Shown one piece after another: positions 5,831 to 63,319 of a DNA stretch of 64,000 bases (within the stretch, counting starts at the first letter, position 1; the number at the start of each line of letters is the position of its first letter). A program made the translations under genes and the position numbers. Source of the stretch: a virus; IMG/VR virus record IMGVR_UViG_3300036817_000261, positions 10,106 through 74,105 of that record, one strand, 5' to 3'. A model generated the notes under the pieces. That model was given only the letters and a program-made list of their open reading frames with translations, was not told where the DNA came from and did no database searches.

Positions 5831-6582
5831 GAGATTCTGGACGCTGCTTTGATTGTTACACTTATGTCTTGTGTTACTTCAATGCCGGGAAGGGCCGGAG
5901 CATGGTCCGGCGCGATCTCCAGCTGGGCTCTAACAGCGTCCTGGCAAGCGAGAATGTCTACTTCAATTTTTAGCAAGCGTATGCACCCGGCTTTTACCGT
6001 GGCCTCGGCGTTGATCAGCTTGAACTTAAAGGGGTGAGTCACGCGGCCCCCAGGCACCAATCCTTTCTCGGGCTCGATATTCATGGCGGCGACTTCCAGC
6101 TCAAGTCCGCGCTCTAACTCCGCCAGCTGCGCTGCTTGCGTCTGGCCGTCAGCCTGGAGCCGGTTCACTCTTTCCTCGTGCGCCTTTTCCTCGAGAGCTT
6201 TCTTGGCCCGGTCCAGCCGTTGTTCGTCTCGCTTTTTTGCCTCGAGCTGTTTCACGTAGCCTTTGAGAAGCTGGGCCAGCCGGTTCTCTTCAGCTTCCAC
6301 TTTGCCGATCAGCTCTTTAGCGAGATCCTCAATTGAGGTCAGGACCGCTTCGAAGGGCCTTTTCGCGCCACGCTTCGCGTCATAGATCTCGCCATGGGCG
6401 GCTTTGAGTTCTCCGGCAGCGCGCCGGGCGGCGGTGAAAGAGTCATCGTCTTTGACCTCGGTGATCTCTTTATTGATTCGCTCGGTCAGATCCAGAACAC
6501 GTTTCCGGTCACTGGAGCGGATTTTGACAGAGACATCGCTGACGGTGAGAGGGTTCTCTCCGTAGTAGGGCGCTAGTTCCAT
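5827..6582 (-). CDS. coiled-coil recombination-associated protein
   Basis: Long charged helix and PGIEV C-terminus; ATGA-coupled to the annealase. Confidence 0.6.
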   Translation of the reverse strand: MELAPYYGENPLTVSDVSVKIRSSDRKRVLDLTERINKEITEVKDDDSFTAARRAAGELKAAHGEIYDAKRGAKRPFEAVLTSIEDLAKELIGKVEAEENRLAQLLKGYVKQLEAKKRDEQRLDRAKKALEEKAHEERVNRLQADGQTQAAQLAELERGLELEVAAMNIEPEKGLVPGGRVTHPFKFKLINAEATVKAGCIRLLKIEVDILACQDAVRAQLEIAPDHAPALPGIEVTQDISVTIKAASRIS

Positions 6583-6936
6583 TTAGTGAGTGGGAGTGGT
6601 TTGGGTCGCCTCGCTAGCAAACTGGGTCCAATAGGCGGTGACGGCATCCTCGAGGTTCTGAGCCTCTTGTAGGCGGATTGCCCTCATCATCGGAAAGTAG
6701 TCGGCGAGATTGGCTTTGGCGTGTTTCACGGCCCGGATCAGCATGAAGCGCATGCTTATCACGTCCCGGCGGCGGAAGTACTGGCCGTTTAAGATCCGTC
6801 TCATGTTTCCGCGCTCGTTGCCACTTGAGACGGCGACAATGTTATCGTGCAGGGGAACGATGGCCTTAGCCAGCTCCTCTACCTCGGTCGAATTGTGACG
6901 GTAATGGACATGGGCATCCACTGTGCTCGTGATCAT
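6583..6936 (-). CDS. hypothetical protein
   Basis: Stop abuts the next start. Confidence 0.55.
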   Translation of the reverse strand: MITSTVDAHVHYRHNSTEVEELAKAIVPLHDNIVAVSSGNERGNMRRILNGQYFRRRDVISMRFMLIRAVKHAKANLADYFPMMRAIRLQEAQNLEDAVTAYWTQFASEATQTTPTH

Positions 6937-7067
6937 AACGTGCTTTCGTTCTGGCGACTAGAGGGAAGTCGCCTTGGGCTTATGCACAGGTTATAACCTG
7001 CATCGCGCAATGCGCAACGCTTAAAAAGCAATGCTTTTATCGCTAAATTATAGTGGAAGCATGCTTT

Positions 7068-7367
7068 TTACTGGAGATAGCCCTGGCCCCTAGCCCACCT
7101 GGGATCCGCGTGAATCTTGCGGTGGCACCAGAAACAGACCGCGAGGCAATGCTCAAAGTCTAGGAGCCGTTTGCCGATCCGGCCCCGGACGTGGTGCGCC
7201 TCGGTCGAGACCGCGCTTTTACAGATCTGACAGGACAGGTGCGCCCTCAGGAAGTTCAGCCGCTCTTCAGAGTACTTGCGCAGCTGGGTCCGGCGCAGCT
7301 TAGAAGCCCGGCGAAGGCCCCTGGAAGCCCGCAGGGGCGTCTTTCGCCGCAGGGGCGAGCGCTTCAT
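7068..7367 (-). CDS. HNH-like Zn-binding nuclease
   Basis: MKRSPLRRKTPL leader; CQIC...HHVRGR...CFWCHRKIH. Confidence 0.7.
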   Translation of the reverse strand: MKRSPLRRKTPLRASRGLRRASKLRRTQLRKYSEERLNFLRAHLSCQICKSAVSTEAHHVRGRIGKRLLDFEHCLAVCFWCHRKIHADPRWARGQGYLQ

Positions 7368-7726
7368 ACCATGTAGACATACGGCACCGGCAGGGGCTCA
7401 TTAAGAGGCCTCCAGAGATGGAGCGTGAAGGGATGGTCGTTGACGTAATCGGCCTTGGCCGGATGGAACTGGACAACCCAATCCTCATCGGCAAAAAAGG
7501 CTTCTTTCACCCGGCACATCACGTTCCAGCTGGGCATAATCTTTCTCTGGGCATTAGAGATTGAGAGGTGCTGCCAGCCCATGCCGTCGCCCAGCATTAT
7601 ATGCCACATCTCCCCTTCCAGGGGTACGAGAAAAGCTCCGTTCCAACCGGCGGTTTCGTCAGAGCCGTACTGGCCCGTGCGAATGCGCCACCGGTTGGCC
7701 TTCAGCAGTTTCTCTAAACCCGTCAT
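7364..7726 (-). CDS. conserved phage protein
   Basis: GMGWQHLSIS...PSWNVMCRVKEAFF...VVQFHP...YVNDHPFTLHLW, a recurrent phage family pattern. Confidence 0.7.
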   Translation of the reverse strand: MTGLEKLLKANRWRIRTGQYGSDETAGWNGAFLVPLEGEMWHIMLGDGMGWQHLSISNAQRKIMPSWNVMCRVKEAFFADEDWVVQFHPAKADYVNDHPFTLHLWRPLNEPLPVPYVYMV

Positions 7727-8112
7727 GCTAGCCCCAATGACTCGAGCAGTTTCTGGGTGTTCTCGCTAGGGGTGCGCTGCGCTTTCGGAACTCGCGGACG
7801 GCGCGCCTGTCTCAAATTCCCGCCAAAGATGACCGGCGTTTTCTTTCGCTTAGGCCCTAACACTCTTTCAAAGGGTGTCCCATCCCGCATAGCCAGATAT
7901 TCTTCATGGGTCGGAATAGGAAAACGGTCCAGATGGAACTGGAGAAAGTGCCCAAAGAATTTCTGCTTTCCACCGGCCCCAGCTCGTAATTTTTCCACGG
8001 TGTCTTTGCGCAGTACGCAGGTCACTTGGACGTAGTTGTCCGGGTTCAACTTTTTTGGGCGGCCGCTGTTCGTGCGTTTGCCGCCATGCCTTGGTTTACC
8101 ATTCGTTGACAT
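7723..8112 (-). CDS. putative DNA-binding protein
   Basis: HGGKRTNSGRPKK AT-hook-like start followed by an RHH-like segment. Confidence 0.55.
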   Translation of the reverse strand: MSTNGKPRHGGKRTNSGRPKKLNPDNYVQVTCVLRKDTVEKLRAGAGGKQKFFGHFLQFHLDRFPIPTHEEYLAMRDGTPFERVLGPKRKKTPVIFGGNLRQARRPRVPKAQRTPSENTQKLLESLGLA

Positions 8113-8294
8113 ATTCGTGAGTAAAAAACCCTTAAAACCCTCGGGTCAGTAATATTGCCTGATTTGCCCTTGCGCAGCAAATAACTAATACCGGAGATGC
8201 GCGGAGGGCCGCCGGTCCAGTGTGGAGTTCCACGGTTTTGACGATTTAGCATTGCTAGTTTATTTTGTGGTGTTTCTGGGTCAGTACAAAGCAT

Positions 8295-47746: not shown

Positions 47747-48988
47747 ATGGGCGACTGTATTGTAACCCCGGTCCAGGCCGTTGACTTTGCTAACAGAGAC
47801 AACAACAGGCTGGTCGGGCAGATCACAACTCTCATTATGCGGCGCGCGCCGTACAATGACACTCTCGATGGCGGCGTTTTCGAGAACGCTATTTCCGATC
47901 AGCAACGCAACGTAGTCGTTGAACGACCGATTCTGGGCCAGTCACTGGTTCTACCAGAATACATCAACGACACCGATTCCTGCGGCACCTTTGGACAGAT
48001 CGCGCAAGTCGGCACGACCGAATATGTAACTCGGTTAGGTACGCTTAGAGGTCGCGGCCCGAAGGTTTGCGTAAAGCAAATGCGCAGTGCGTTCCAGAAC
48101 TCATATGTCGCAGTTCAAGACTCACTCCAAAAGCAGTTACTCTATCTGGCTAACTGCGACGTGCGTTCTCAGCTGTTTTTACATAGCGGCGTTAAGGTTA
48201 AGATTAACCAGGGCCGCACGTTTGAGCAGATGGTCAACGGCGATGTGCAGATGATTGACGTTCCCGTCAATGACTCGACGCCGCCGGATGCAAACCTGAC
48301 CTTCTCGTTCCTGCAGTACTTGTTAGTTTTCGCACATGAAACTTTACTGTGCGAGAGCTTCGAATCCGAGAAGGGAACGGTAGCTAAATTCATCGGCGCA
48401 CAGACGCAATTGAACGTCTTCCGCGATGAACTCAATGTTCACCAAGACTTGCAGTACCTAACTACTGGCCGCTACGAGCTTGGTAATGAGTCCATAACCG
48501 GGTACTCCTGGGAAGGACCCTATAGAGGCATTGCATTTGGCATTGATCAGCAGCCTCTCAGGTTCAACCAGTTCACCGTCTTAAACGGCCAGCTGATTCC
48601 ACAGTTCATCGAGCCCGAGATTGCGGTGCCGGTGACCACGGGCTTCGGCGCGCGGACTAACCCAGCGTGGCTCTACGCTCAGTACGAGGTTGGTTTCCTC
48701 ATGTTCGCCAACTCGTTCCGCCGGTTAGTTCCCGAGCAATACTTAGGAGTTGGTGATTGGAAATTTCCGGCTCAATTCGCACAAGGCGAATTGGAGTTCA
48801 CGGTCATCCGCGACAACGACTGCAACACCTACGGCGATTACGGCTACCACATCTATCAGATGATCCGAGCCTATCGCCCGGAGCGCCCTCATGCCGTGAT
48901 TCCCATCATGTACAAGAGGTGCAACCCGACCTTCAACTTCCTAACCTGCCCGAGCTATCCTGGCTCTGCTAGCGGTTACGCGATGTAA
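47747..48988 (+). CDS. major capsid protein
   Basis: 413 aa in the head module, followed by a terminator; RPERPHAVIPIMYKRC C-terminus. Confidence 0.75.
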   Translation: MGDCIVTPVQAVDFANRDNNRLVGQITTLIMRRAPYNDTLDGGVFENAISDQQRNVVVERPILGQSLVLPEYINDTDSCGTFGQIAQVGTTEYVTRLGTLRGRGPKVCVKQMRSAFQNSYVAVQDSLQKQLLYLANCDVRSQLFLHSGVKVKINQGRTFEQMVNGDVQMIDVPVNDSTPPDANLTFSFLQYLLVFAHETLLCESFESEKGTVAKFIGAQTQLNVFRDELNVHQDLQYLTTGRYELGNESITGYSWEGPYRGIAFGIDQQPLRFNQFTVLNGQLIPQFIEPEIAVPVTTGFGARTNPAWLYAQYEVGFLMFANSFRRLVPEQYLGVGDWKFPAQFAQGELEFTVIRDNDCNTYGDYGYHIYQMIRAYRPERPHAVIPIMYKRCNPTFNFLTCPSYPGSASGYAM

Positions 48989-53386: not shown

Positions 53387-54679
53387 ATGCCTATTTTCTC
53401 AGGTTACATTTCTTATGCGCCGTTTCCCGAAGGGTTCCAGGGAGACATGGACGAGACTTTCCAGCAGAGCGGCCAGCTGGCGATTATCTTCATCAGCGGG
53501 AACTTCTTAACCGGCCTCTATTATCCGATTGGGACAACTCCTGCTCCGACTTTGCCTACTAACGATGTAGGCCCGATTGCATCGAACGGCCAATGGTACT
53601 TCTGGGACCCGGTGACCGGCCAGTATCTGCCGCAATCGACCAGTGTCAGGCCCGCGAAGAATTACGCGAAGAACGCGATCTATCAAATCCAGCAGCTGGG
53701 CAGCTCGATCAATCTTTCCTCTGCCGGAGTTAATAAAACCTACGACATGGTTTTAAGCCGGGTGACCCAGCCCAATGTTTTAGAGATCACTTTGGACACG
53801 GGCCCGGCAGCAAGCGCGGACACGGATTTTATTGGGAGCGCCATCAAATACACGGTCGCGCCTGCTAACATAACTCCGCTCGCGGCCACCGATATTTTCG
53901 TCCATGAGCACCTAATTGAGGGCAGCGACATTGCCGGAATCAAGGGCGAGATTTTAAGCCTCGCTTTCAGTGTCTGGGTTAACCAGCCGGGCAACTATTC
54001 GGCTTATATCACTTCCAGCGGTCGGGATGCGAGCTACGTCTTTCCCTTCACTATCACGACCCCCAACAGCTGGACCCGGATCAAGATTAATAATATCCCG
54101 GCCTTCCCGCTAACGGTTGGCACTTGGCAGTTCGGGGAAGCCCAGACTGGCGTTTATGTGGGAGTGGTGATGGCGGTCGGTGCGCAGTACCAGACCGGGA
54201 ATCCGAAGCAATGGGTGGCAGGCTTTTTTGCTGGCACGGCAGCTAACTCCAATATGGTGGGAGTGCTCAATAACCAGATAAAGGTTACGGCGATCAAGCT
54301 CGAGGCTAGTGTCGCTTGCAGCTATTTTACAGCCAATAGCTTCGAGCAGGATTATAACGACGCTATCCGCTATTATTTCACGACTTTCACTTATCAATCG
54401 GTCACGGCAGGTGTCCTTGTAGCGGCTACATCCCATGCGATCAACGCAGTTCAGTTTAATTTCCTATTCCCACGCCGGATGGCCACTGTGCCGACAGTAA
54501 TACCGTATGGCAACAGCAGTCATACGGCAGGAGTAGTAAGCAATGTTAGTAATGGCATTGATTACGCCGCTGCCAGCCTAGGGGCTACTGCTAAAGGGAT
54601 CGTGAGTCTCGTCAGCGCAACTGCGACCAAAGCTGACGTGTTTTTAGCCTTTATCACTGCCGATGCAAGACTCTCCTGA
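53387..54679 (+). CDS. tail fibre/spike-like protein with beta-sandwich domain
   Basis: IEGSDI...LSLAFSV...IKLEA...RYYF...ADARL pattern of phage carbohydrate-binding tail proteins. Confidence 0.65.
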   Translation: MPIFSGYISYAPFPEGFQGDMDETFQQSGQLAIIFISGNFLTGLYYPIGTTPAPTLPTNDVGPIASNGQWYFWDPVTGQYLPQSTSVRPAKNYAKNAIYQIQQLGSSINLSSAGVNKTYDMVLSRVTQPNVLEITLDTGPAASADTDFIGSAIKYTVAPANITPLAATDIFVHEHLIEGSDIAGIKGEILSLAFSVWVNQPGNYSAYITSSGRDASYVFPFTITTPNSWTRIKINNIPAFPLTVGTWQFGEAQTGVYVGVVMAVGAQYQTGNPKQWVAGFFAGTAANSNMVGVLNNQIKVTAIKLEASVACSYFTANSFEQDYNDAIRYYFTTFTYQSVTAGVLVAATSHAINAVQFNFLFPRRMATVPTVIPYGNSSHTAGVVSNVSNGIDYAAASLGATAKGIVSLVSATATKADVFLAFITADARLS

Positions 54680-55064
54680 TAAAACCGGGATCTCCTTAAT
54701 CCGCATCAACAATGAGAAAGAGATGCGAAAGTGGAGCGTCGATCTGCTTTCCCGAGATCTGTGGGGTGGTGAGTGCCCGCGCCAGTACCCGGTTTATGTA
54801 GTCTTTCATCATGGTGAACCGGTCGGTTATTTTCTAGCTATCCAGCAGACGGTCGTTTATCCGGCGCTGCATCCCGAGCGGATCAGCCCACGCGACTTCC
54901 TTAAAATTACTCGCAGTCTGGTCACCGAAGTTAAGCGCATGACCGGCAATCCCCTGATCATGCTCTGCAAAAAAGACGCCGAGTTCGGAGAAAAGAATAT
55001 GAGACGAGTGCGGCTCAAAAAGGCGGAAGAAAACGCCTATATATACGACGAGGAGGCTAGTTAA
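54663..55064 (+). CDS. small protein preceding the internal virion genes (GNAT-like candidate)
   Basis: Position analogous to podovirus acetyltransferase-like genes; VVFHHGEPVGYF. Confidence 0.45.
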   Translation: MQDSPDKTGISLIRINNEKEMRKWSVDLLSRDLWGGECPRQYPVYVVFHHGEPVGYFLAIQQTVVYPALHPERISPRDFLKITRSLVTEVKRMTGNPLIMLCKKDAEFGEKNMRRVRLKKAEENAYIYDEEAS

Positions 55065-55067
55065 CCT

Positions 55068-56696
55068 ATGGGCGGCGGCGGCGGCGGCGGCAATCAACAG
55101 TTTCAAGCTCAAGGGACTCCTCCTGGGTTTGATTATAATAGCGCCCAGGCCCTCAACCAGATGGCCATTGGGGGCGATATCTCGAGCTATGCGTTAAGTG
55201 ACGCGGATTTTGCTAACCGTTATCCGGCGCTCCAGAATGCTTACAACCAGTGGCAATCTAACCTGGGCCAGCAAGTCAACGCTGCCGGAGCTGCTACCGG
55301 TGGGCTCCAGAACGTCATGGGTGGGTTAGCTAACCAGATTGCAGGCCGCAACGCCGCTCCGACGACCAGCGACATCAATTCCATCCGTAACGCCGCTTCG
55401 ACCGTGGGTGGCGCAGTCCAGCCGATCATGGGCCTAGGAGCCCAGCAAGCCAGTCTAGCCCAGCCCATCATCAATTACGGTGCTCAGCAAGCGGGACTGG
55501 GTGCGCAACAAGCGGCGCAAGGTTACCAACAGATAGGGATGGGTGGCCAGATCGGTGCCATGGGGGGCCGGATGGCTGGGATGGGAGGCCAACTCTATGG
55601 CCAGGGCCAACAACTCTCCAGCATGGCGGCCACTCCTTACGCTTTAGGCCAGCAACTCTTGCAGGAGCCGATTGATCCTCAGACTCAGCAGCAGATGATG
55701 CGGGCTGGATTAGGAAGTACTCTGGGGGCTGGATTAGGCGCAGCCTCTTTAGGCCAAGGAATGGCCGGACAAGCCGCTGCTGCCCGCCAGCTGGGTTTAA
55801 ACACGCTGCAGTATGGCCAAGCCATGCGGGCCGAGGGCACGGGCGATATCTCCCAAGCCGCCTCTATTATGGGCCAAGGCGGCCAGCTCTCGGGACTTGG
55901 CGCGCAAACTTACGGTCAAGGCGCACAGACAGTTGGCCTTGGCGCGCAGACGATTGGGGCCGGAGCTGGGACGATCGGAGCTGGTGCTGGGACGATCGGC
56001 GCTGGTGGCCAGACCATGGGACTAGGAGCAAATGTCTTGGGTCAAGGGGCCCAGACCTACGGACTGGGAGCCAATGTCGCAAACCAAGCTGGCCAGCTTT
56101 CCAGTGCTGCCCAACAAGCCCAGGAACAGTACGGGATGGATACGTCCCAGATGGCCAACACCTATGGGACGCTCCAAAATCAGCAGGCCATGAATCTGAT
56201 GCTGAACATGCAGACCGCCGGGAACATGTTCCAAAAGAGGCCCTTCGGGCTAGGCGGCACCAACATGGCCCAGACCGAATTGGGGCAGGCCGGAGCCTAT
56301 AACAGTTTTCAGCAGGCAAATTATGCGACCATGAACGGGATCGCCTTTAATTCGGCTCAGCTCAATGCTCAGAATAATCAGGCCGCAGCCCAGCAGCAAT
56401 CGGCGACGACCGGCGCTCTGGTCTCAGCGGGTTCAACCGCAGCGGTAGTCGGAGCCACCGCTGCAGGCGCAGCTTGCTGGGTCGCGCGCGCCGCATTCGG
56501 AGAAGACTCGCCTAAGTGGCGCATCTTCCGGCACTGGCTCATGAACAAAGCCCCCAGGACGCTCCGCCGTCTCTATCTGGTCTATGGACCTAGCTTCGCC
56601 CCTAAAGTACGCGCAAACAGGCTGCTAGGGGGCTTGGCGAGGCGATTAATGGACCTTGCGATCAACCGGACCACCTACGTATGCCTACCCGCTTAG
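55068..56696 (+). CDS. Gly/Gln/Ala-rich ejection (pilot)-like protein with C-terminal CWVAR domain
   Basis: MGGGGGGG start, heptad glycine repeats, CWVARAAFG...FRHWL...LYLVYGP tail. Confidence 0.7.
   Translation: MGGGGGGGNQQFQAQGTPPGFDYNSAQALNQMAIGGDISSYALSDADFANRYPALQNAYNQWQSNLGQQVNAAGAATGGLQNVMGGLANQIAGRNAAPTTSDINSIRNAASTVGGAVQPIMGLGAQQASLAQPIINYGAQQAGLGAQQAAQGYQQIGMGGQIGAMGGRMAGMGGQLYGQGQQLSSMAATPYALGQQLLQEPIDPQTQQQMMRAGLGSTLGAGLGAASLGQGMAGQAAAARQLGLNTLQYGQAMRAEGTGDISQAASIMGQGGQLSGLGAQTYGQGAQTVGLGAQTIGAGAGTIGAGAGTIGAGGQTMGLGANVLGQGAQTYGLGANVANQAGQLSSAAQQAQEQYGMDTSQMANTYGTLQNQQAMNLMLNMQTAGNMFQKRPFGLGGTNMAQTELGQAGAYNSFQQANYATMNGIAFNSAQLNAQNNQAAAQQQSATTGALVSAGSTAAVVGATAAGAACWVARAAFGEDSPKWRIFRHWLMNKAPRTLRRLYLVYGPSFAPKVRANRLLGGLARRLMDLAINRTTYVCLPA
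55899..56087 (+). repeat. nine in-frame heptad repeats (GAQTxGx)
   Basis: GAQTYGQ GAQTVGL GAQTIGA GAGTIGA GAGTIGA GGQTMGL GANVLGQ GAQTYGL GANVANQ. Confidence 0.8.
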
Positions 56697-57901
56697 AGTT
56701 GCGTGAAGCTTGTGCTGAAGCCCTGAACCGGTTAACCCGCGAAGAGTTGCTCGAAAAGTTCGCGATCTCGCGAGTAGCCGATGTGACGGGACTGGATACT
56801 ATCGGGGTGCCGGTTTTCACTGCCACCCGGCCCCTTTCCCAGACCCTGTCTATCCATGCCGGGAAAGGCCTGGAAGCTAAATACTCGCGAGCTGGAGCCA
56901 TCGCTGAGGCGATTGAGTGTGAAGTGGCAGAACACCCTTTTGGTGAGTTCAAGGTGGCTGCGAGTCTGCAGCTGCCCGAAGAAGACCATCTAGCGATAGA
57001 AGATTGTTTTCCGATCCGGGCTTCGATTGTTAACGAGATGACGCCGATTGCCTGGGAGGAAGCGACCAACATCCAGAACGGGGCCGTTAAACTGGTCCCC
57101 AGCGACTTGATCTGGGTAGTAACCCGGCTGCCGGAGCAGTCGCTGATGCATTTCCAGATAGGCTCAAATGGCCTTGCGAGCGGGGCCAGCTTGGAAGACG
57201 CGATCCTCTCCGGCCTTTACGAGATCGTGGAGCGCGATGGCTGGACCTTGCACACCTACATGATGGACGTGTTAGGCATTTTAGCTAATCGGATGCCCCT
57301 AGTTAGTCTCTGCCCACAAATCGAAGAAATTGTCCGGCGTTTAGACGAACACGAGCTTAAGCTGCATCTCTTTGATTGCACCACCGATTATCAGGTGCCG
57401 GTCTTTACTGCAACCATCCTCGACCTATCCGGCAACTGTGCTGGGACCTTTGCTGGCTATGGGTGCCATCTGAATGCGGAAACGGCGGCGCTGCGGGCGG
57501 TCACCGAAGCGATCCAGGGCCGGGCCTGCTACATCTCCGGTGCACGCGATGATCTCTTGCGGCGTCAGTTCTTGCTTATGAAACATCTGGATCAAGCGCG
57601 CCTGGACCAAATGTTTAACGACCTAGAGCGAGGCAGTTCCATCAGCGAATATCGGAAAGTTGAGTTTCCTGACGTAAAGAGCGAATTGCGCTACCTCTTA
57701 AAGCTCCTAAGGAGCCGGGGCGTCAACGAAGTCTTTGTGAAAGATCTGGGCCTCCATGCTGATTGCCTGCATGTGGTGCGGGTCTTTAGCCCGCAGTGCG
57801 AGCCGCACCGGTTCGATTACTGGACCCCAGGCTTGCGCTGCCTTTCCTATGCCCAGCGCAAGCTGGAAGAACTTAAGGAGGATAAAGAATGTCCGACCTA
57901 A
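56681..57901 (+). CDS. ycaO: YcaO family protein (TfuA-associated, thioamide-forming type)
   Basis: ISRVADVTGLDTIGVPV, GKG...EAIE, SNGLASG...GLYEIVERD, RAVTEAIQGR...ISGARDDL, VVRV. Confidence 0.93.
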   Translation: MPTRLELREACAEALNRLTREELLEKFAISRVADVTGLDTIGVPVFTATRPLSQTLSIHAGKGLEAKYSRAGAIAEAIECEVAEHPFGEFKVAASLQLPEEDHLAIEDCFPIRASIVNEMTPIAWEEATNIQNGAVKLVPSDLIWVVTRLPEQSLMHFQIGSNGLASGASLEDAILSGLYEIVERDGWTLHTYMMDVLGILANRMPLVSLCPQIEEIVRRLDEHELKLHLFDCTTDYQVPVFTATILDLSGNCAGTFAGYGCHLNAETAALRAVTEAIQGRACYISGARDDLLRRQFLLMKHLDQARLDQMFNDLERGSSISEYRKVEFPDVKSELRYLLKLLRSRGVNEVFVKDLGLHADCLHVVRVFSPQCEPHRFDYWTPGLRCLSYAQRKLEELKEDKECPT

Positions 57902-59235
57902 TCCTCGTCTACCTGGGCCCCAGCCTGGAACTGGAAAAAGCCAAAAAGATTCTGCCTGATGCGCTCTACCGGCCACCAGCCCGCCAAGGTGACATCGTCA
58001 GCGATGTGATTAACTTGAATCCGTCAATCGTGATCCTGATTGATGGCGAATTCCGCCAGAACCTGAGCCCCTGGCACAAGGAGATCGTTTATGCGCTCCA
58101 ACACCCAGGCGTCAAAGCCATTTACGGAGCAGCTTCAATCGGAGCCTTGCGCGCGGTCGAGCTGGGCTTTTTAGGGATGATCGGGATCGGTCAGATCTAT
58201 GAATGGTATCGGGACGGGGTCACTGAAGATGACGCCGAAGTGGCGCTTAGCTACGGTAGGCGTGTGCGGCTTAAAGACGGCGATCCCGCCTATGCTACCC
58301 TCACAGTCCCGTTAGTTAATATTCGGGCTGGGGTTGAGCATTACCAGCGGGAGTTTGCGGATAATCCTCCCGCCATCGAGGCCGTTAACCAGTTTTTAAA
58401 GGTGATGCAGGCCACTCACTATAGCGCGCGGACCCAGGCGCTTTGCGAAGAGATCTGGGCCGGTGCATTAGGAATTAGTTTCCCTTGCATCCCGCAAAAA
58501 GAGTTAGATGCGATTGAAGCTCTTACTAACTTCTGGAGTTATTTGCCGGAGCTTAAAGTTAAGCCTACGCCGCAGCATCTATCACACGCTTTCCACGCTC
58601 TCTATGACCGGGACCGGCGCATTCCAATTGGAGGACAAGAGGTCCCTCAGCAGCATATCGATAGCTACGTGATTCTGCATAACCCGGAGTACGAGCGCAT
58701 TTGCTGGGATAGTGCGAATCAAGAACTGGCCCTGATGCTCTGCAACCTGCTTTATGTGACTGTCGACTTGAGCGAAGCCGAAATGGAGTCACACCGGTTC
58801 CAGCAACGCTGCGGGGTTAAGACCATAGAAGACTTTAAGCGGATGTTAGAAAGCAACGGTTGGACTAGGGGCGAATTCGATCGGTTAGTCATTCAGAATG
58901 CCCGGATCCGCAAGCTGCAGCACTCTTTAAGTTCTTCTAAGCATTCCCAGCGTAACACCTGTGCGATCCTCGACTATCTGCGCACGCATCAAGGCTTCGA
59001 TTACTGGGCGATTAAAGCGGCTCAGAAAGAGGCACAGATCGCGCGTCTGGGAATCGATGACTGGAATGTGGATTTAGAAACCTCGCCTTGGAAATTGTTA
59101 CATGATCAGTTTGAGGCTGAGGGGTTGGAGCTGAACTCTTCGGAGGAAGCGTATCTCTTAGAAACTGGTTTTAATAATAGACGGGAACTGGCGGTCGCAT
59201 TAGGTCGGCTGGCCGCAGCAGCGAAGGAGAATTAA
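57889..59235 (+). CDS. tfuA: TfuA-like protein with C-terminal extension
   Basis: YLGPSL, PPARQGD, IDGEF, WHKEI, GAASIGALRAVEL, GMIGIGQIY, DDAEVA, PLVNIR, QKELDA. Confidence 0.93.
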   Translation: MSDLILVYLGPSLELEKAKKILPDALYRPPARQGDIVSDVINLNPSIVILIDGEFRQNLSPWHKEIVYALQHPGVKAIYGAASIGALRAVELGFLGMIGIGQIYEWYRDGVTEDDAEVALSYGRRVRLKDGDPAYATLTVPLVNIRAGVEHYQREFADNPPAIEAVNQFLKVMQATHYSARTQALCEEIWAGALGISFPCIPQKELDAIEALTNFWSYLPELKVKPTPQHLSHAFHALYDRDRRIPIGGQEVPQQHIDSYVILHNPEYERICWDSANQELALMLCNLLYVTVDLSEAEMESHRFQQRCGVKTIEDFKRMLESNGWTRGEFDRLVIQNARIRKLQHSLSSSKHSQRNTCAILDYLRTHQGFDYWAIKAAQKEAQIARLGIDDWNVDLETSPWKLLHDQFEAEGLELNSSEEAYLLETGFNNRRELAVALGRLAAAAKEN

Positions 59236-59237
59236 CT

Positions 59238-60836
59238 ATGGCCGGTCCGCAACAATTTACCAGCTGGGATCAAGTTCAAAGCCAGTATGGCGCTGCCGTC
59301 AGCGATCAGCTGCAAGCCCTGAATGTTCCCTTAACCCAAGTAGGGAATCTGGCCCAGCAATATGGTTCGGCCTTTTCGCAGATTGGTAGCCAGACGCCCA
59401 GTGGCGGGATATACACTCCGCCTGGATTCGGAGCCTCGTTGGGCCAGGGTCAACAGCAACAGGGCCCTCCTCCAGGCACCATAAATCTAAGCGGAGCACA
59501 GGACCCGGCTTATGCATCTAACTTGTTAGGCGCACAAGCTTTGCAGGCCGTGGGGCTTAACCCCAGTAAGTCCATGACGGCTAACCAGCTCCCTGGTGCG
59601 GGAGGTGCTCCGGGTGGCAATAACTTTGCCCAAAGCGGGGTGACTCCAGTCAGCGGGCCCATGAACTACGACATCAGCGGCCAGCCGATGCCGAATGTTA
59701 ACCCGCAAATCGGCAGCGTTTTTAATGCGGTCCAACCTAATAAACCGACCGTTAGCGGCCCATTGCAACAAACCCCCGCGAACGCCAATCCTGATTGGGG
59801 GAACATGAATGCGGCGCAGCAAAAGGCCTACATGCAAGGGCAGGGCATGAAGCCAGCTGCAAGGCAGACCTATAGCGCAGAGCAGAATCAAATCCAGCAG
59901 AACCAACAAGCGGGTCTTTACATCAACCCAACCAAGCAGGCTACTGGTGCTCAAGCAGGCCAGTCCCAGCCTTTTGCGGCCCCGCCGAGCGTGCCGCCGA
60001 TCAGTGTTCCTCCCTCTACTAGTGTTCCTCCCTCCACCAGCGTTATGCCGCCAGCTGCTCCAAGTGGCACTCCCGGCGCTAACTATATGGGCGGGATAAA
60101 TAGCTTTCATCAGCTGCCTGCAGGCCATCAGCCCGCCAATATGTATGGGGAAATGGGAACGAGGGGAACGAGCGGCATCCCGGCAAGCGCGGCCATCCCT
60201 CATTTCCAAGATGGTGGCATCGTGACTGAGCCGACCCTGGCAATGGTAGGTGAGGCCGGTCCAGAAGCGATTGTGCCCCTCACTGATCCAAACTATCAGA
60301 TGCAGACTCCTCAGATCCAGGGTCAGATGCCGACCTCACAGAGTAACGCAGTCCAGCGCTTGCCTTTGACTCAGATGGGTCCGTCACCGCAGCAGCCCGC
60401 GCAGCAGCCCCCAGCGCAACAGCCCGCATTTGCCCCAAGGCCGCAGGCTCCGCCAGCTCCGGCGGGACCGACTGAAGCCCAGGCTTTGCAGGGCGGCACT
60501 CAAGTCGGACCTCCTAATCCGGCCCAACAGACTCAAGCCCAGGCGCTGCAGAGCGGAACTCAGGTCGGACCTCCTAACCCGGCTCAACAGAATAACCCGG
60601 TGTCAGCAACTGCCCAGGCAGCAGCCAATTCCGCGATTCATAACACGCTGAATAGAACAGGATTTTTGGATAAAATGCGCCCCTTGCTCGGCCAAGCTCA
60701 AAATGCCGGTGCTGCGCTTGAGCAACAGGGTCAAAGGCCCAGGGCGATGGTGCAGAATTCTATTCCCAGCCCTGATGATTTCAAAAACAAGAATAATCAG
60801 ATCTATCTAACCGGTGCCAACCAAGGGTTCGCTTAG
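59238..60836 (+). CDS. Pro/Gln-rich internal virion protein
   Basis: Low complexity; FQDGGIVTEPTLAMVGEAGPEAIVPL motif. Confidence 0.65.
   Translation: MAGPQQFTSWDQVQSQYGAAVSDQLQALNVPLTQVGNLAQQYGSAFSQIGSQTPSGGIYTPPGFGASLGQGQQQQGPPPGTINLSGAQDPAYASNLLGAQALQAVGLNPSKSMTANQLPGAGGAPGGNNFAQSGVTPVSGPMNYDISGQPMPNVNPQIGSVFNAVQPNKPTVSGPLQQTPANANPDWGNMNAAQQKAYMQGQGMKPAARQTYSAEQNQIQQNQQAGLYINPTKQATGAQAGQSQPFAAPPSVPPISVPPSTSVPPSTSVMPPAAPSGTPGANYMGGINSFHQLPAGHQPANMYGEMGTRGTSGIPASAAIPHFQDGGIVTEPTLAMVGEAGPEAIVPLTDPNYQMQTPQIQGQMPTSQSNAVQRLPLTQMGPSPQQPAQQPPAQQPAFAPRPQAPPAPAGPTEAQALQGGTQVGPPNPAQQTQAQALQSGTQVGPPNPAQQNNPVSATAQAAANSAIHNTLNRTGFLDKMRPLLGQAQNAGAALEQQGQRPRAMVQNSIPSPDDFKNKNNQIYLTGANQGFA
60471..60590 (+). 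repeat. 60-bp in-frame tandem duplication
   Basis: TEAQALQGGTQVGPPNPAQQ / TQAQALQSGTQVGPPNPAQQ. Confidence 0.85.
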
Positions 60837-60844
60837 AAAATAAT

Positions 60845-63319
60845 ATGGCAGATCCAGCCACTCAATTTCAACCGCCGGGGATGCAGGCCTCGGGGTACTC
60901 ACCTTCGGTCGTTCCCAGCGAGACTCGTGGCATCCAGCTGGCGAATTACGGGCCGATGATGCAGGCCATCGAGCAGGCCGGACAGACCATCCTTAACTCA
61001 CCACTTAACCCCGAGGTGCGTTCCCGCATGCAGCTTGCTGCCGCTGGAGCCCAGGTTGGCACCAAGGAACTCCAAGAATGGTCTAACGATCCTAATCAGC
61101 GCTGGAAGCTCGGGATGTTAGGCGGGATTAGTGGTGGCCAATTTAACTTGGCTCCGGGCTATGCCACGCCGATGGCTACTCGCGCTTTACTCTCTCCTCC
61201 TGGCGGCGGCGCAGGAAATCAGGTGGGTCCTCCTAATCCCAGTACAGTGCCGCCAGGGGATAATCCTCAGCAGCAGCAACCACAGCAACAGCCACCGGGT
61301 CAGCAACAGACTCCTCAACAGCAGCCGCAGGGCCAGAGTAATGGCTTCGGCTTTAAGACCAGTCAGGCCGACACCTCGAATCCTTTTGCTCCTCCTGGCC
61401 AGCAACCTCCAATGGCAGCGCCCGGTGGGCAGCAGGTGAATCCGAATCTCTCGGCCTCGACCGACAACGATTTTCTCTTGCGCCGCAATGCCCAACAGCA
61501 AGCTGGGCAGCAAATGGCGGATCAAGTTGGGCAGCAGGCCTTGGTTCAGTGGCAGAACAATAACCAGGGCGGCGTCATGAGTGCCGTCCAGGCTAAGGAA
61601 TGGGCGCAGCACAATCTGGATACCGACATCAATCGGGCGGTCTATTTGCCGCAGGGAGGCCCAACCGGACAGAACGGCCAAAAGGAACCGGCCTTCGCTT
61701 TTTTCGGGAAAAAAGGAGGGACAAATGTAGTCCCTATCTCCCAGATGGTTAAGGCTGGAGCCGGAGCCCTGGTTGCGGCCCAGAACTCGAGTCAGGTCTT
61801 AAATACTGCCGATCAGGCAAACAAAGCGGCCCAGCAGGTTAACCAGCAGCAACAAGGCGGCTCACCGACTCCGATGTCGGCTCAGATGGGTCAGCCGCAA
61901 GGACCTCCGGCTGCGCCCAGCGCAGTTCCGCAGACTCCAGGCGGCCAGACTGATTGGGGCGCGATGCCCGGCCAATTACCGCAGGATGAATTTAATCGCC
62001 GGGTAGCAGCGGCCACCAATGTCACTAATGCCGGGGGCCCTCCGACTACCAGCTTAACCGCGAGCGCGGCCAATGGCCCAAATGCGGCTACTTCTACGAC
62101 CGACGAGAATGGCACTCCGAAAGCCGGTCATAATGACGGCACGGTTAACTTGAGCGGCAACCCCAATTTTGTGGCTCAAACTACTGGGCTTAATAACGAC
62201 CAGTTGAATCAGATGCGGAATAGCTACCTTAAAAATGGTAGTTCAACTTTTAATCCCAATAGCTCGGATCAGTCCAATCCTGATCCGATGATTGGCAAGA
62301 CAGGTGATTTCAGCTGGTACATGTCCAATGGCGGCAAAGGACTGGCTTATGCGGTTAAACCAGGGCAAGTACCTTTTACCGAATCGCGGTTGTACGAAGG
62401 CAGCGATCACTGGGAGCAGTTCGATCCGCCCGAGCAAGCCTTGCAGCGCAACTTGATGCAATGGGATCCGAGCCTGTCGCCTGCCGAGATTCAGGGGATG
62501 AGTAAACAGCAAATGCAAGCTCGCCTGCAGGAGCAATACTACATTCAAAGAATCCTGCCTTCTCGAGGCGAAATGCAACCCGGCACTCAGGCTAATGTCG
62601 ATCATTTGCATGACGAGATTCTAGCGGCGACTCGAGTGGAGAACGCGATTAAAGGGATGAAACCCCAGCAGTACGGCCAGACCGCTCAGCAAGGCAATAC
62701 ACTGGCTCGGCAGGCCGAGACTCTACAATCTAGCGACCAACACGGGCCTTTGGGCTGGTGGAACAATGCTAGGGCCTGGGTCAATGGGTTAATCTCTGGT
62801 CAAGGTCAGGAGAATCCCAAGGTTAGTTTTATTCAGGACCAAATGAAAAACCTCGAAGGCCAAGTGGCCGGTCGAGCCGACGAGGAAGCGCCTCTTAAGC
62901 AATTAAGCGCGACGGCAGGTTCAACTACCTTCCCGACCGAGCTGCACAACTGGTTAAACCAGCGCAAACTGGATTACCAAAGATCGGTGACTGGGATCTT
63001 GGCTAATAACCAGCGGATTCCCGGCCAGTACGTGGATATGGCTAACGACATGAAGGTAGGAAAACCTTGGTGGGATCCAGCCGACACTTATGGACCCGGC
63101 TCGACCCTACAACCGGGCAATGCCGCTAAAGCCGAGCACGCCCAGTTAGCTAATCATGGAGCACCACCGGCAGCGCCCAGCCCGACTCCGAGCCCGACTC
63201 CGGCTATGGGCACCAGCCAAGCTAATCCGCTCAAGGTGAATTCGGCCCAGCAATATAACGCCGTTCCCAAAGGTACTTATTATCAAGATTCGACCGGTCG
63301 CACTTTCTTAAAGCAGTAA
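60845..63319 (+). CDS. Gln/Pro/Gly-rich internal virion (ejection) protein
   Basis: 824 aa; C-terminal QYNAVPKGTYYQDSTG motif typical of ejection proteins. Confidence 0.65.
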   Translation: MADPATQFQPPGMQASGYSPSVVPSETRGIQLANYGPMMQAIEQAGQTILNSPLNPEVRSRMQLAAAGAQVGTKELQEWSNDPNQRWKLGMLGGISGGQFNLAPGYATPMATRALLSPPGGGAGNQVGPPNPSTVPPGDNPQQQQPQQQPPGQQQTPQQQPQGQSNGFGFKTSQADTSNPFAPPGQQPPMAAPGGQQVNPNLSASTDNDFLLRRNAQQQAGQQMADQVGQQALVQWQNNNQGGVMSAVQAKEWAQHNLDTDINRAVYLPQGGPTGQNGQKEPAFAFFGKKGGTNVVPISQMVKAGAGALVAAQNSSQVLNTADQANKAAQQVNQQQQGGSPTPMSAQMGQPQGPPAAPSAVPQTPGGQTDWGAMPGQLPQDEFNRRVAAATNVTNAGGPPTTSLTASAANGPNAATSTTDENGTPKAGHNDGTVNLSGNPNFVAQTTGLNNDQLNQMRNSYLKNGSSTFNPNSSDQSNPDPMIGKTGDFSWYMSNGGKGLAYAVKPGQVPFTESRLYEGSDHWEQFDPPEQALQRNLMQWDPSLSPAEIQGMSKQQMQARLQEQYYIQRILPSRGEMQPGTQANVDHLHDEILAATRVENAIKGMKPQQYGQTAQQGNTLARQAETLQSSDQHGPLGWWNNARAWVNGLISGQGQENPKVSFIQDQMKNLEGQVAGRADEEAPLKQLSATAGSTTFPTELHNWLNQRKLDYQRSVTGILANNQRIPGQYVDMANDMKVGKPWWDPADTYGPGSTLQPGNAAKAEHAQLANHGAPPAAPSPTPSPTPAMGTSQANPLKVNSAQQYNAVPKGTYYQDSTGRTFLKQ

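Follow-up and report, generated by a model that had tools for sequence, protein, structure and literature searches.

The virus record IMGVR_UViG_3300036817_000261 carries, within an operon of virion-module genes, an adjacent ycaO-tfuA gene pair that is intact, conserved and maintained by selection, and we tentatively propose that the two products form a working pair that thioamidates an Ala-rich segment of the large Gly/Ala/Gln-rich protein encoded immediately upstream. The composition of this segment differs between phages with and without YcaO. The stretch analysed (the window) comprises 64,000 nucleotides, bases 10106-74105 of the 74,105-bp IMG/VR record. The chemistry, the substrate, the source of sulfur and the benefit to the phage are what we infer.

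An initial annotation, made from the sequence of the window, had recognized both enzymes as intact by their short motifs, and profile searches agreed. YcaO matches Pfam PF02624 (1.9e-57, 195.5 bits, cut-off 25.7) over profile positions 1-324 of 325, and TfuA matches Pfam PF07812 (5.7e-28, 97.5 bits, cut-off 30) over positions 1-119 of 119. The best solved relative of YcaO is the thioamide-forming MJ1094 (PDB 6PE3, 4.6e-31), with whose corresponding motifs the EAIE, SNGLASG, EIVERD and TEAIQ motifs of the phage enzyme align. The ATP/Mg motifs (ExxE, S/T-NGLASG, ExxERD and RA-x-TE-x2-Q-x-RA) are invariant among 20 phage YcaO homologues. Against the NCBIfam equivalogs of the McrA system (the TIGR03266/NF033432 pair), YcaO scored 178.3 bits (cut-off 365) and TfuA scored 132.9 (cut-off 235.2); to judge by these scores, both below the cut-off, the phage proteins are relatives of the McrA-thioamidation system and not members of it. 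NF040716, which describes the E. coli YcaO subfamily, scored just 39 bits on the phage YcaO. In a phylogeny, the phage YcaOs were monophyletic (100/100) with respect to the eight cyanobacterial sequences sampled and were separated by long internal branches, which fits one old acquisition of ycaO by phages, cellular sampling being narrow.

The TfuA core, its GAASIGALRA motif included, aligns with that of 6XP8, a TfuA of solved structure. An AlphaFold2 model of TfuA built with 54 homologues had a predicted local distance difference test score (pLDDT) of 93.3, and its first 220 residues matched 6XP8 with a VIA Z score of 23.6 and a root-mean-square deviation (rmsd) of 2.5 Å over 202 residues (Foldseek 2.7e-11). 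When 54 long TfuAs are aligned, Ser83 and Lys64, the putative catalytic pair of TfuA, show conservation of 90% or more. With 448 residues, the phage TfuA is about twice the archaeal length (~210 residues) and, by its sequence, belongs to the long, ~450-residue type of bacterial clusters for peptides that are made by the ribosome and modified after translation (RiPPs), not to the methanogen type. A search of 1.84 billion representative proteins retrieved 4,289 TfuA matches, many of them ~450 residues long and aligned end to end with 30-40% identity; thus, the extension is not peculiar to phages. A long TfuA was found beside a YcaO in 9 of 301 cyanobacterial genomes.

As had been noted at the outset, ycaO overlaps the upstream 542-residue gene by 16 nt, tfuA overlaps ycaO by 13 nt, and 2 nt separate the tfuA stop codon from the next gene; the ORFs (open reading frames) are exactly as described. 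Chimeric assembly, a concern raised by the initial annotation, is excluded, since contigs of an independent soil metagenome (run X2) that are identical to the window at 56303-58709 and 58680-59898 bridge all three junctions, and since the gene order recurs elsewhere. This order, in which a 133-residue gene is followed by the Gly/Ala/Gln-rich gene, ycaO, tfuA and large low-complexity genes, was found in 18 IMG/VR loci whose YcaO identity ranges from 90% to 36%, in a phage of 131 kb and, where flanking sequence suffices, in ~24 metagenome loci, and it recurs across 34 metagenome loci. Besides run X2, more than 40 further contigs show the junctions. In all, 359 metagenomic YcaO homologues were retrieved. 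Every sufficiently long contig that encodes a 413-residue capsid-like protein of this phage group, including the 131-kb phage, also has the YcaO-TfuA pair.

Within these loci, ycaO and tfuA are adjacent wherever there is enough flank, two loci having a small ORF in between. That ORF, seen in one subclade (L016:11232-11537 and L017:11178-11435), encodes a Cys-rich product of 85-101 residues with a zinc-ribbon-like CPxCG...CGNC pattern. The upstream gene adjoins ycaO, usually overlapping it, in 18 of 18 IMG/VR loci and in the ~24 metagenome loci with enough flank, with one exception. In this sole break of adjacency, an ORF at L148/L150:3469-4020 lies between the upstream gene and ycaO; its product has an HNH-endonuclease-like motif, as judged by eye.

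Pairwise ratios of nonsynonymous to synonymous substitution (dN/dS) were 0.055-0.08 for ycaO, 0.08-0.11 for tfuA and 0.09-0.13 for the upstream 542-residue gene. The values for ycaO and tfuA were equal to or lower than those of the flanking structural genes, the 413-residue capsid-like protein excepted. On these comparisons, the pair is under strong purifying selection. Throughout a deep clade of phages the two genes stay linked, and dN/dS is low, the reverse of the unlinked pair under relaxed selection for which the initial annotation had also allowed.

The 542-residue upstream protein consists of an N-terminal poly-Gly run, repeated GxGAQT units, an Ala-rich stretch and a C-terminal domain that we refer to as the CW-x-AR domain. 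Two of its features were considered and rejected. The poly-Gly run is not a universal thioglycine target, since the distant subclade lacks it and just the close one conserves it. The CW-x-AR domain is not a YcaO-linked feature, since it is common in phages that lack YcaO and is lost in two YcaO-bearing loci, L015 and L017. At least 564 IMG/VR stretches carry the domain. Among the best 80 CW-domain loci, 77 have neither ycaO nor tfuA within 8 kb, and none of 30 whole records with the domain (15 of them at least 90% complete) has a YcaO. The only cultured carrier found is Puniceispirillum phage HMO-2011, where the domain is part of gp25, whose gene follows the tail-fibre genes and precedes the last three large genes of the structural module.

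The stretch in front of the domain behaves differently. In the 25 residues that precede the Cys-Trp, the 15 variants with YcaO have 38% Ala and 15% Gly, and the 63 variants that lack it have 19% Ala and 24% Gly (Mann-Whitney p = 2e-8 for Ala, with no correction for phylogeny). In L015 and L017, the upstream protein ends at an Ala-rich tail (...SAAGSAATAAAV and ...IIGGIAAAAVVALA, each followed by the stop codon) a few bases before ycaO. L015 is deep-branching and L017 is nested among relatives that retain the CW domain; the domain is absent from the entire complete 73.8-kb record that holds L017. Thus, where the domain was lost the tail was kept, i.e., the tail stays with ycaO, and its position at the C-terminus in these two loci is, by analogy, that of a RiPP core. 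A cellular precursor is available for comparison in the cyanobacterial locus L138, where YcaO and a long TfuA are preceded by a 99-residue peptide with a Nif11 leader (Pfam 6.3e-12), a double-glycine site and the core SPAAKTGEAAGAIFGPAAASLGAACI; the Ala-rich segment of the phage reads SATTGALVSAGSTAAVVGATAAGAAC. Nif11-type precursors have been reported from TfuA clusters (PMC8120280), and TfuA phylogeny reportedly tracks precursor type (PMC6511847). Taken together, the CW-domain survey, the Ala contrast, the L015 and L017 tails and the L138 core single out the Ala-rich tail as the best candidate for the substrate.

Several points weigh against this assignment. Since the CW domain mostly occurs without YcaO, the upstream protein family and the domain itself are independent of thioamidation. 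The Ala contrast rests on just three or four independent YcaO-bearing lineages, and the likeness of the phage segment to the L138 core is compositional only. The stretch is of low complexity and borderline hydrophobic, with a Kyte-Doolittle 19-residue maximum of ~1.6, and may simply be a membrane segment. Finally, with equivalog scores below the cut-off, substrate specificity is not transferable from the McrA system.

The position of the tail in L015 and L017, together with the fact that the closest cellular architecture is a Nif11-leader RiPP cluster, could also be taken to mean that the upstream protein is a precursor from which the modified C-terminal part is released as a peptide (membrane-active, lytic or anti-competitor, for example), which would make this a true phage RiPP. 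We regard this as highly improbable. As the initial annotation had stated, no RiPP precursor, transporter or protease adjoins the pair, which Pfam and PHROG searches bore out: the neighbour of the enzymes is a 542-residue protein instead of a short precursor with leader and core, no leader peptidase or export transporter was matched among the neighbours or the 55 largest ORFs, and there is no double-glycine site near the pair. Moreover, the "leader" would have to span >200-440 residues of a conserved structural-type protein, and in most phages the stretch is internal and is followed by a conserved domain of 70 residues.

A sulfur carrier for thioamidation would have to come from the host. TfuA is described as a hydrolase that acts with thiocarboxylated ThiS homologues (PMC13063428). 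The lack of thiS and thiF noted at first for the window extends to the whole 74,105-bp genome, so sulfur would be drawn from host carriers or free sulfide. No methyl-coenzyme M reductase family was present among the Pfam matches of the 55 largest ORFs.

The chemistry of YcaO enzymes is versatile and an invariant Cys stands just after the Ala-rich stretch, so a different outcome could be imagined, namely an azoline at this Cys or at Ser/Thr, or an amidine; alternatively, the pair could be a neutral passenger. The latter is ruled out by dN/dS below 0.11 and universal retention. As for other chemistry, the TfuA partner is always there and under selection, and every characterised case links TfuA to thioamidation (PMC5589413, PMC6511847, PMC13063428). 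Pfam searches found no E1-like/Ocin-ThiF partner or dehydrogenase, and the Cys is equally invariant in phages without YcaO. We therefore give this pair of alternatives hardly any credence.

Modelled alone, the C-terminal extension of TfuA had a pLDDT of 85. Its nearest structural neighbours were consistently helical modules of chaperones (SurA, trigger factor, PrsA, PEB4 and PpiD), which made up 11 of the top 14 VIA rows as well as the top Foldseek rows. The best neighbour had a Z score of 7.0 and an rmsd of 2.5 Å over 88 residues, and Foldseek E values were 0.37 or higher, so that every score fell short of the caution mark set by the tool itself. No PDB sequence was matched in a profile search with the extension, and Pfam searches of the isolated extension and of the isolated C-terminal domain of the upstream protein returned nothing but a chance-level match to DUF6109. 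The models thus offer a lead: the extension may hold an unfolded segment of the substrate.

The target might instead be another phage protein, such as the downstream Gln/Pro/Gly/Ala-rich proteins, a giant 2784-residue protein or the 413-residue capsid-like protein, perhaps recognized via a folded surface. The downstream genes begin 2 nt after tfuA and their products are also Ala/Gly-rich, and there is precedent for such recognition, since E. coli YcaO reads the tertiary structure of a full protein (uL16) and not a leader peptide (PMC13063428). The downstream proteins, however, evolve very fast, often with no BLAST match between subclades, so that no conserved site is evident in them. The capsid-like protein is highly constrained (dN/dS 0.013-0.027; 93-99% identity among phages whose other virion proteins are 45-75% identical), but its gene lies 7.7 kb away, is on the opposite strand in one subclade (L016/L116), and nothing ties its constraint to YcaO. 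We consider a target among these proteins unlikely.

Nor do we favour a host protein, which the enzymes would modify in the infected cell, or after being packaged and injected, and thereby redirect or shield host machinery such as the ribosome; we judge this distinctly unlikely. Cellular YcaOs do modify housekeeping proteins, McrA and, in Pseudomonadota, uL16 (PMC5589413; PMC13063428), the phage genes lie among those of putative ejected proteins, and host sulfur carriers would be needed anyway. A host target leaves unexplained, however, both why the pair should so strictly adjoin a single phage gene, with coupled translation, across very deep divergence and the retention of the Ala-rich tail at the C-terminus before ycaO after the domain was lost, and the long TfuA type occurs in RiPP-like clusters with an adjoining precursor. 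The initial annotation had placed the substrate among phage internal/ejection proteins or host proteins. The phage neighbour is now favoured and the candidate is narrowed to the upstream Ala-rich tail; the "ejection" label is putative, the likeness of the neighbouring genes to those of podovirus internal/ejection proteins consisting only in where they lie (as in HMO-2011), in the low complexity of their products and in one weak tape-measure motif of a downstream protein.

Our preferred reading is thus that the pair acts on the Ala-rich segment. YcaO and TfuA would be made together with the late virion proteins; YcaO would activate backbone amides with ATP, and TfuA would supply sulfide, either free or taken from a host thiocarboxylate of the ThiS/MoaD type. 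The product would be one or more thioamides in the Ala-rich segment (approximately residues 445-469) of the upstream protein, a member of a widespread Gly/Ala/Gln-rich family encoded where podovirus internal/ejection proteins are, and the helical extension of the long TfuA would hold the unfolded substrate segment. We hold the proposal that this segment is thioamidated by a working pair tentatively, at slightly less than even odds. With somewhat more reserve, the whole picture may be that of a large clade of soil phages that thioamidate the Ala-rich tail of their own virion-module protein by means of host sulfur carriers, with a chaperone-like domain of the long TfuA presenting the segment. 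Protease resistance, escape from sensors and control of ejection, the roles suggested in the initial annotation, are speculation.

Few protein modifications are as rare as backbone thioamides, whose known carriers are a single archaeal enzyme, a single ribosomal protein of bacteria and a small number of peptide natural products. If the proposal is true, backbone thioamidation would be seen in a virus for the first time, as would a thioamide in a structural or ejection protein. The system would add a third type of target among proteins, and a new level to virion chemistry, in an abundant clade of soil phages that has retained it in the virion operon over a very long time. Because the enzymes adjoin the gene of the candidate substrate, the question is directly testable. 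The extension, common to phage TfuAs and uncharacterised bacterial RiPP clusters, may in addition show how a substrate is held.

Table 1. Features of the virion-module operon that contains ycaO and tfuA (window positions).
Feature	Position	Strand	Basis or remark
133-aa conserved gene	54663..55064	+	no Pfam/PHROG match; syntenic homologues in all related loci, down to 23-29% identity
542-aa Gly/Ala/Gln-rich virion-module protein, candidate substrate	55068..56696	+	homologues directly 5' of ycaO
Ala/Ser/Thr/Gly/Val-rich stretch, ~aa 445-469, SATTGALVSAGSTAAVVGATAAGAA	56400..56474	+	just before invariant Cys-Trp; proposed thioamidation site
C-terminal domain C-W-[VIM]-A-R-x2-[YFL]-G...W-x2-F-R-x-W...P...R-x2-Y...G...A	56475..56693	+	alignment; widespread phage module
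ycaO, 406 aa, predicted ATP-dependent backbone-amide-activating enzyme	56681..57901	+	Pfam YcaO, MJ1094/6PE3 match
tfuA, 448 aa	57889..59235	+	Pfam TfuA
TfuA core, aa 1-220	57889..58548	+	Pfam 5.7e-28; AlphaFold2 model; 6XP8 fold match
TfuA C-terminal helical extension, aa 222-448	58552..59235	+	conserved in phage and bacterial long TfuAs
532-aa Gln/Pro/Gly/Ala-rich low-complexity protein	59238..60836	+	tape-measure-like motif, aa 285-359
824-aa Gln/Pro/Gly-rich low-complexity protein	60845..63319	+	no family match (Pfam, PHROG)
Start of giant ORF, ~2784 aa	63321..63998, on into genome 32-7852 (L020)	+	frame arithmetic, 177-bp terminal overlap

The layout of the operon is given in Table 1. The 133-residue gene invariably precedes the Gly/Ala/Gln-rich gene. 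In the GxGAQT repeat region of the latter (window 55087-56121), contigs of run X1, possibly the sample from which the window itself came, skip 360-600 nt, which suggests repeat-number variants in the population or assembly collapse. The 532-residue protein downstream of TfuA is fast-evolving; its motif GGIVTEPTLAMVGEAGPEAIVPL, embedded in an otherwise disordered Gln/Pro-rich sequence, matches a conserved block of the tape-measure families PHROG 1535, 10093 and 12798 (5e-7 to 5e-4). In L001 and L003, the closest relatives, the counterpart of the 824-residue protein shows 37-39% identity and YcaO ~90%. The giant ORF lies directly 3' of the 824-residue gene, continues in frame across the 177-bp overlap and carries DUF7178 at its C-terminus; its product might be an enzyme packaged in the virion or an ejection protein of giant size. 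The 413-residue capsid-like protein (window 47747-48988, plus strand) has no Pfam or PHROG match, and its Atlas features point to capsid families; the constraint on it is unusually strong for a capsid gene. In L115 (10001-11482) and L120 (10001-11477), the match to this gene is ~240 nt longer than in all other relatives, which could reflect an insertion, or an intein or intron.

The 74,105-bp record is rated complete by CheckV, and its 177-bp terminal overlap indicates a circularly assembled genome. The virus is a tailed phage and has genes for a large terminase, for tail-collar and tail-fibre proteins, and for a GH25 endolysin, a helicase and RecT. Since neither the terminase nor YcaO has a match among the cultured phages of INPHARED, the phage is, as far as its sequence tells, very distant from them. 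A pattern-based contig scan, which is no measure of absence, returned one cellular relative, a Prochlorococcus contig of 3.7 kb. A full-text literature search combining YcaO or TfuA with phage terms found no description of a phage YcaO-TfuA system, in line with the first impression that the pair had not been reported from a phage morphogenesis module. The enzyme families are already known; what is new is the setting, that is, a viral late operon with the tail of a large virion-module protein as candidate substrate and with no leader, protease or transporter.

Among known systems, the uncharacterised bacterial clusters of YcaO with long TfuA and Nif11 precursors, predicted to make thioamidated RiPPs (PMC8120280), share with the phage a two-part TfuA that aligns over its full length, an adjacent YcaO, and a candidate substrate beside the enzymes with an Ala/Gly-rich segment that ends near a Cys. 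The phage, in contrast, lacks the short precursor, the Nif11 leader, the double-glycine site and the transporter; its candidate is the tail of a virion-module protein of 210-576 residues, phage YcaOs form a clade of their own relative to the cyanobacterial sequences sampled, and its TfuA is just 23-33% identical to the cyanobacterial ones. One cyanobacterial locus, L137, has a second YcaO of 762 residues (5966-8254, minus strand) beside its pair of YcaO and long TfuA, plus a 1950-residue ORF. The second YcaO weakly resembles ThiF (Pfam E 2.6e-5; 23.9 bits, where the cut-off is 28.1), and by these features L137 looks like a hybrid azoline/thioamide cluster.

The archaeal YcaO-TfuA system that forms the thioglycine of McrA (PMC5589413) provides the best solved-structure matches of both phage proteins, MJ1094 and the TfuA of 6XP8. 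The ATP/Mg and TfuA core motifs are shared, and in the archaeal system, too, the substrate is a protein and not a secreted peptide. The archaeal TfuA, however, has no C-terminal extension, and the phage proteins score far below the equivalog cut-offs. Thioamitide cores are Ala-rich. In the thioamitide (thioviridamide-type) pathways of Actinobacteria, small residues abound in the segment on which YcaO-TfuA acts, and more than one thioamide can be formed (PMC6511847); these clusters contain a short precursor and many more tailoring enzymes, none of which the phage has. E. coli YcaO, which modifies uL16, resembles the proposed phage system in that a full-length protein of a large machine is modified (PMC13063428), but it acts in the absence of TfuA and is a member of another YcaO subfamily. 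HMO-2011 gp25 and its uncultured homologues have the same C-terminal domain (a CWVAREVYG-type module) as the phage upstream protein and the same gene position, which follows the tail genes and precedes the final large genes of the virion module; in these phages, YcaO-TfuA is absent and the stretch before the Cys has more Gly and less Ala.

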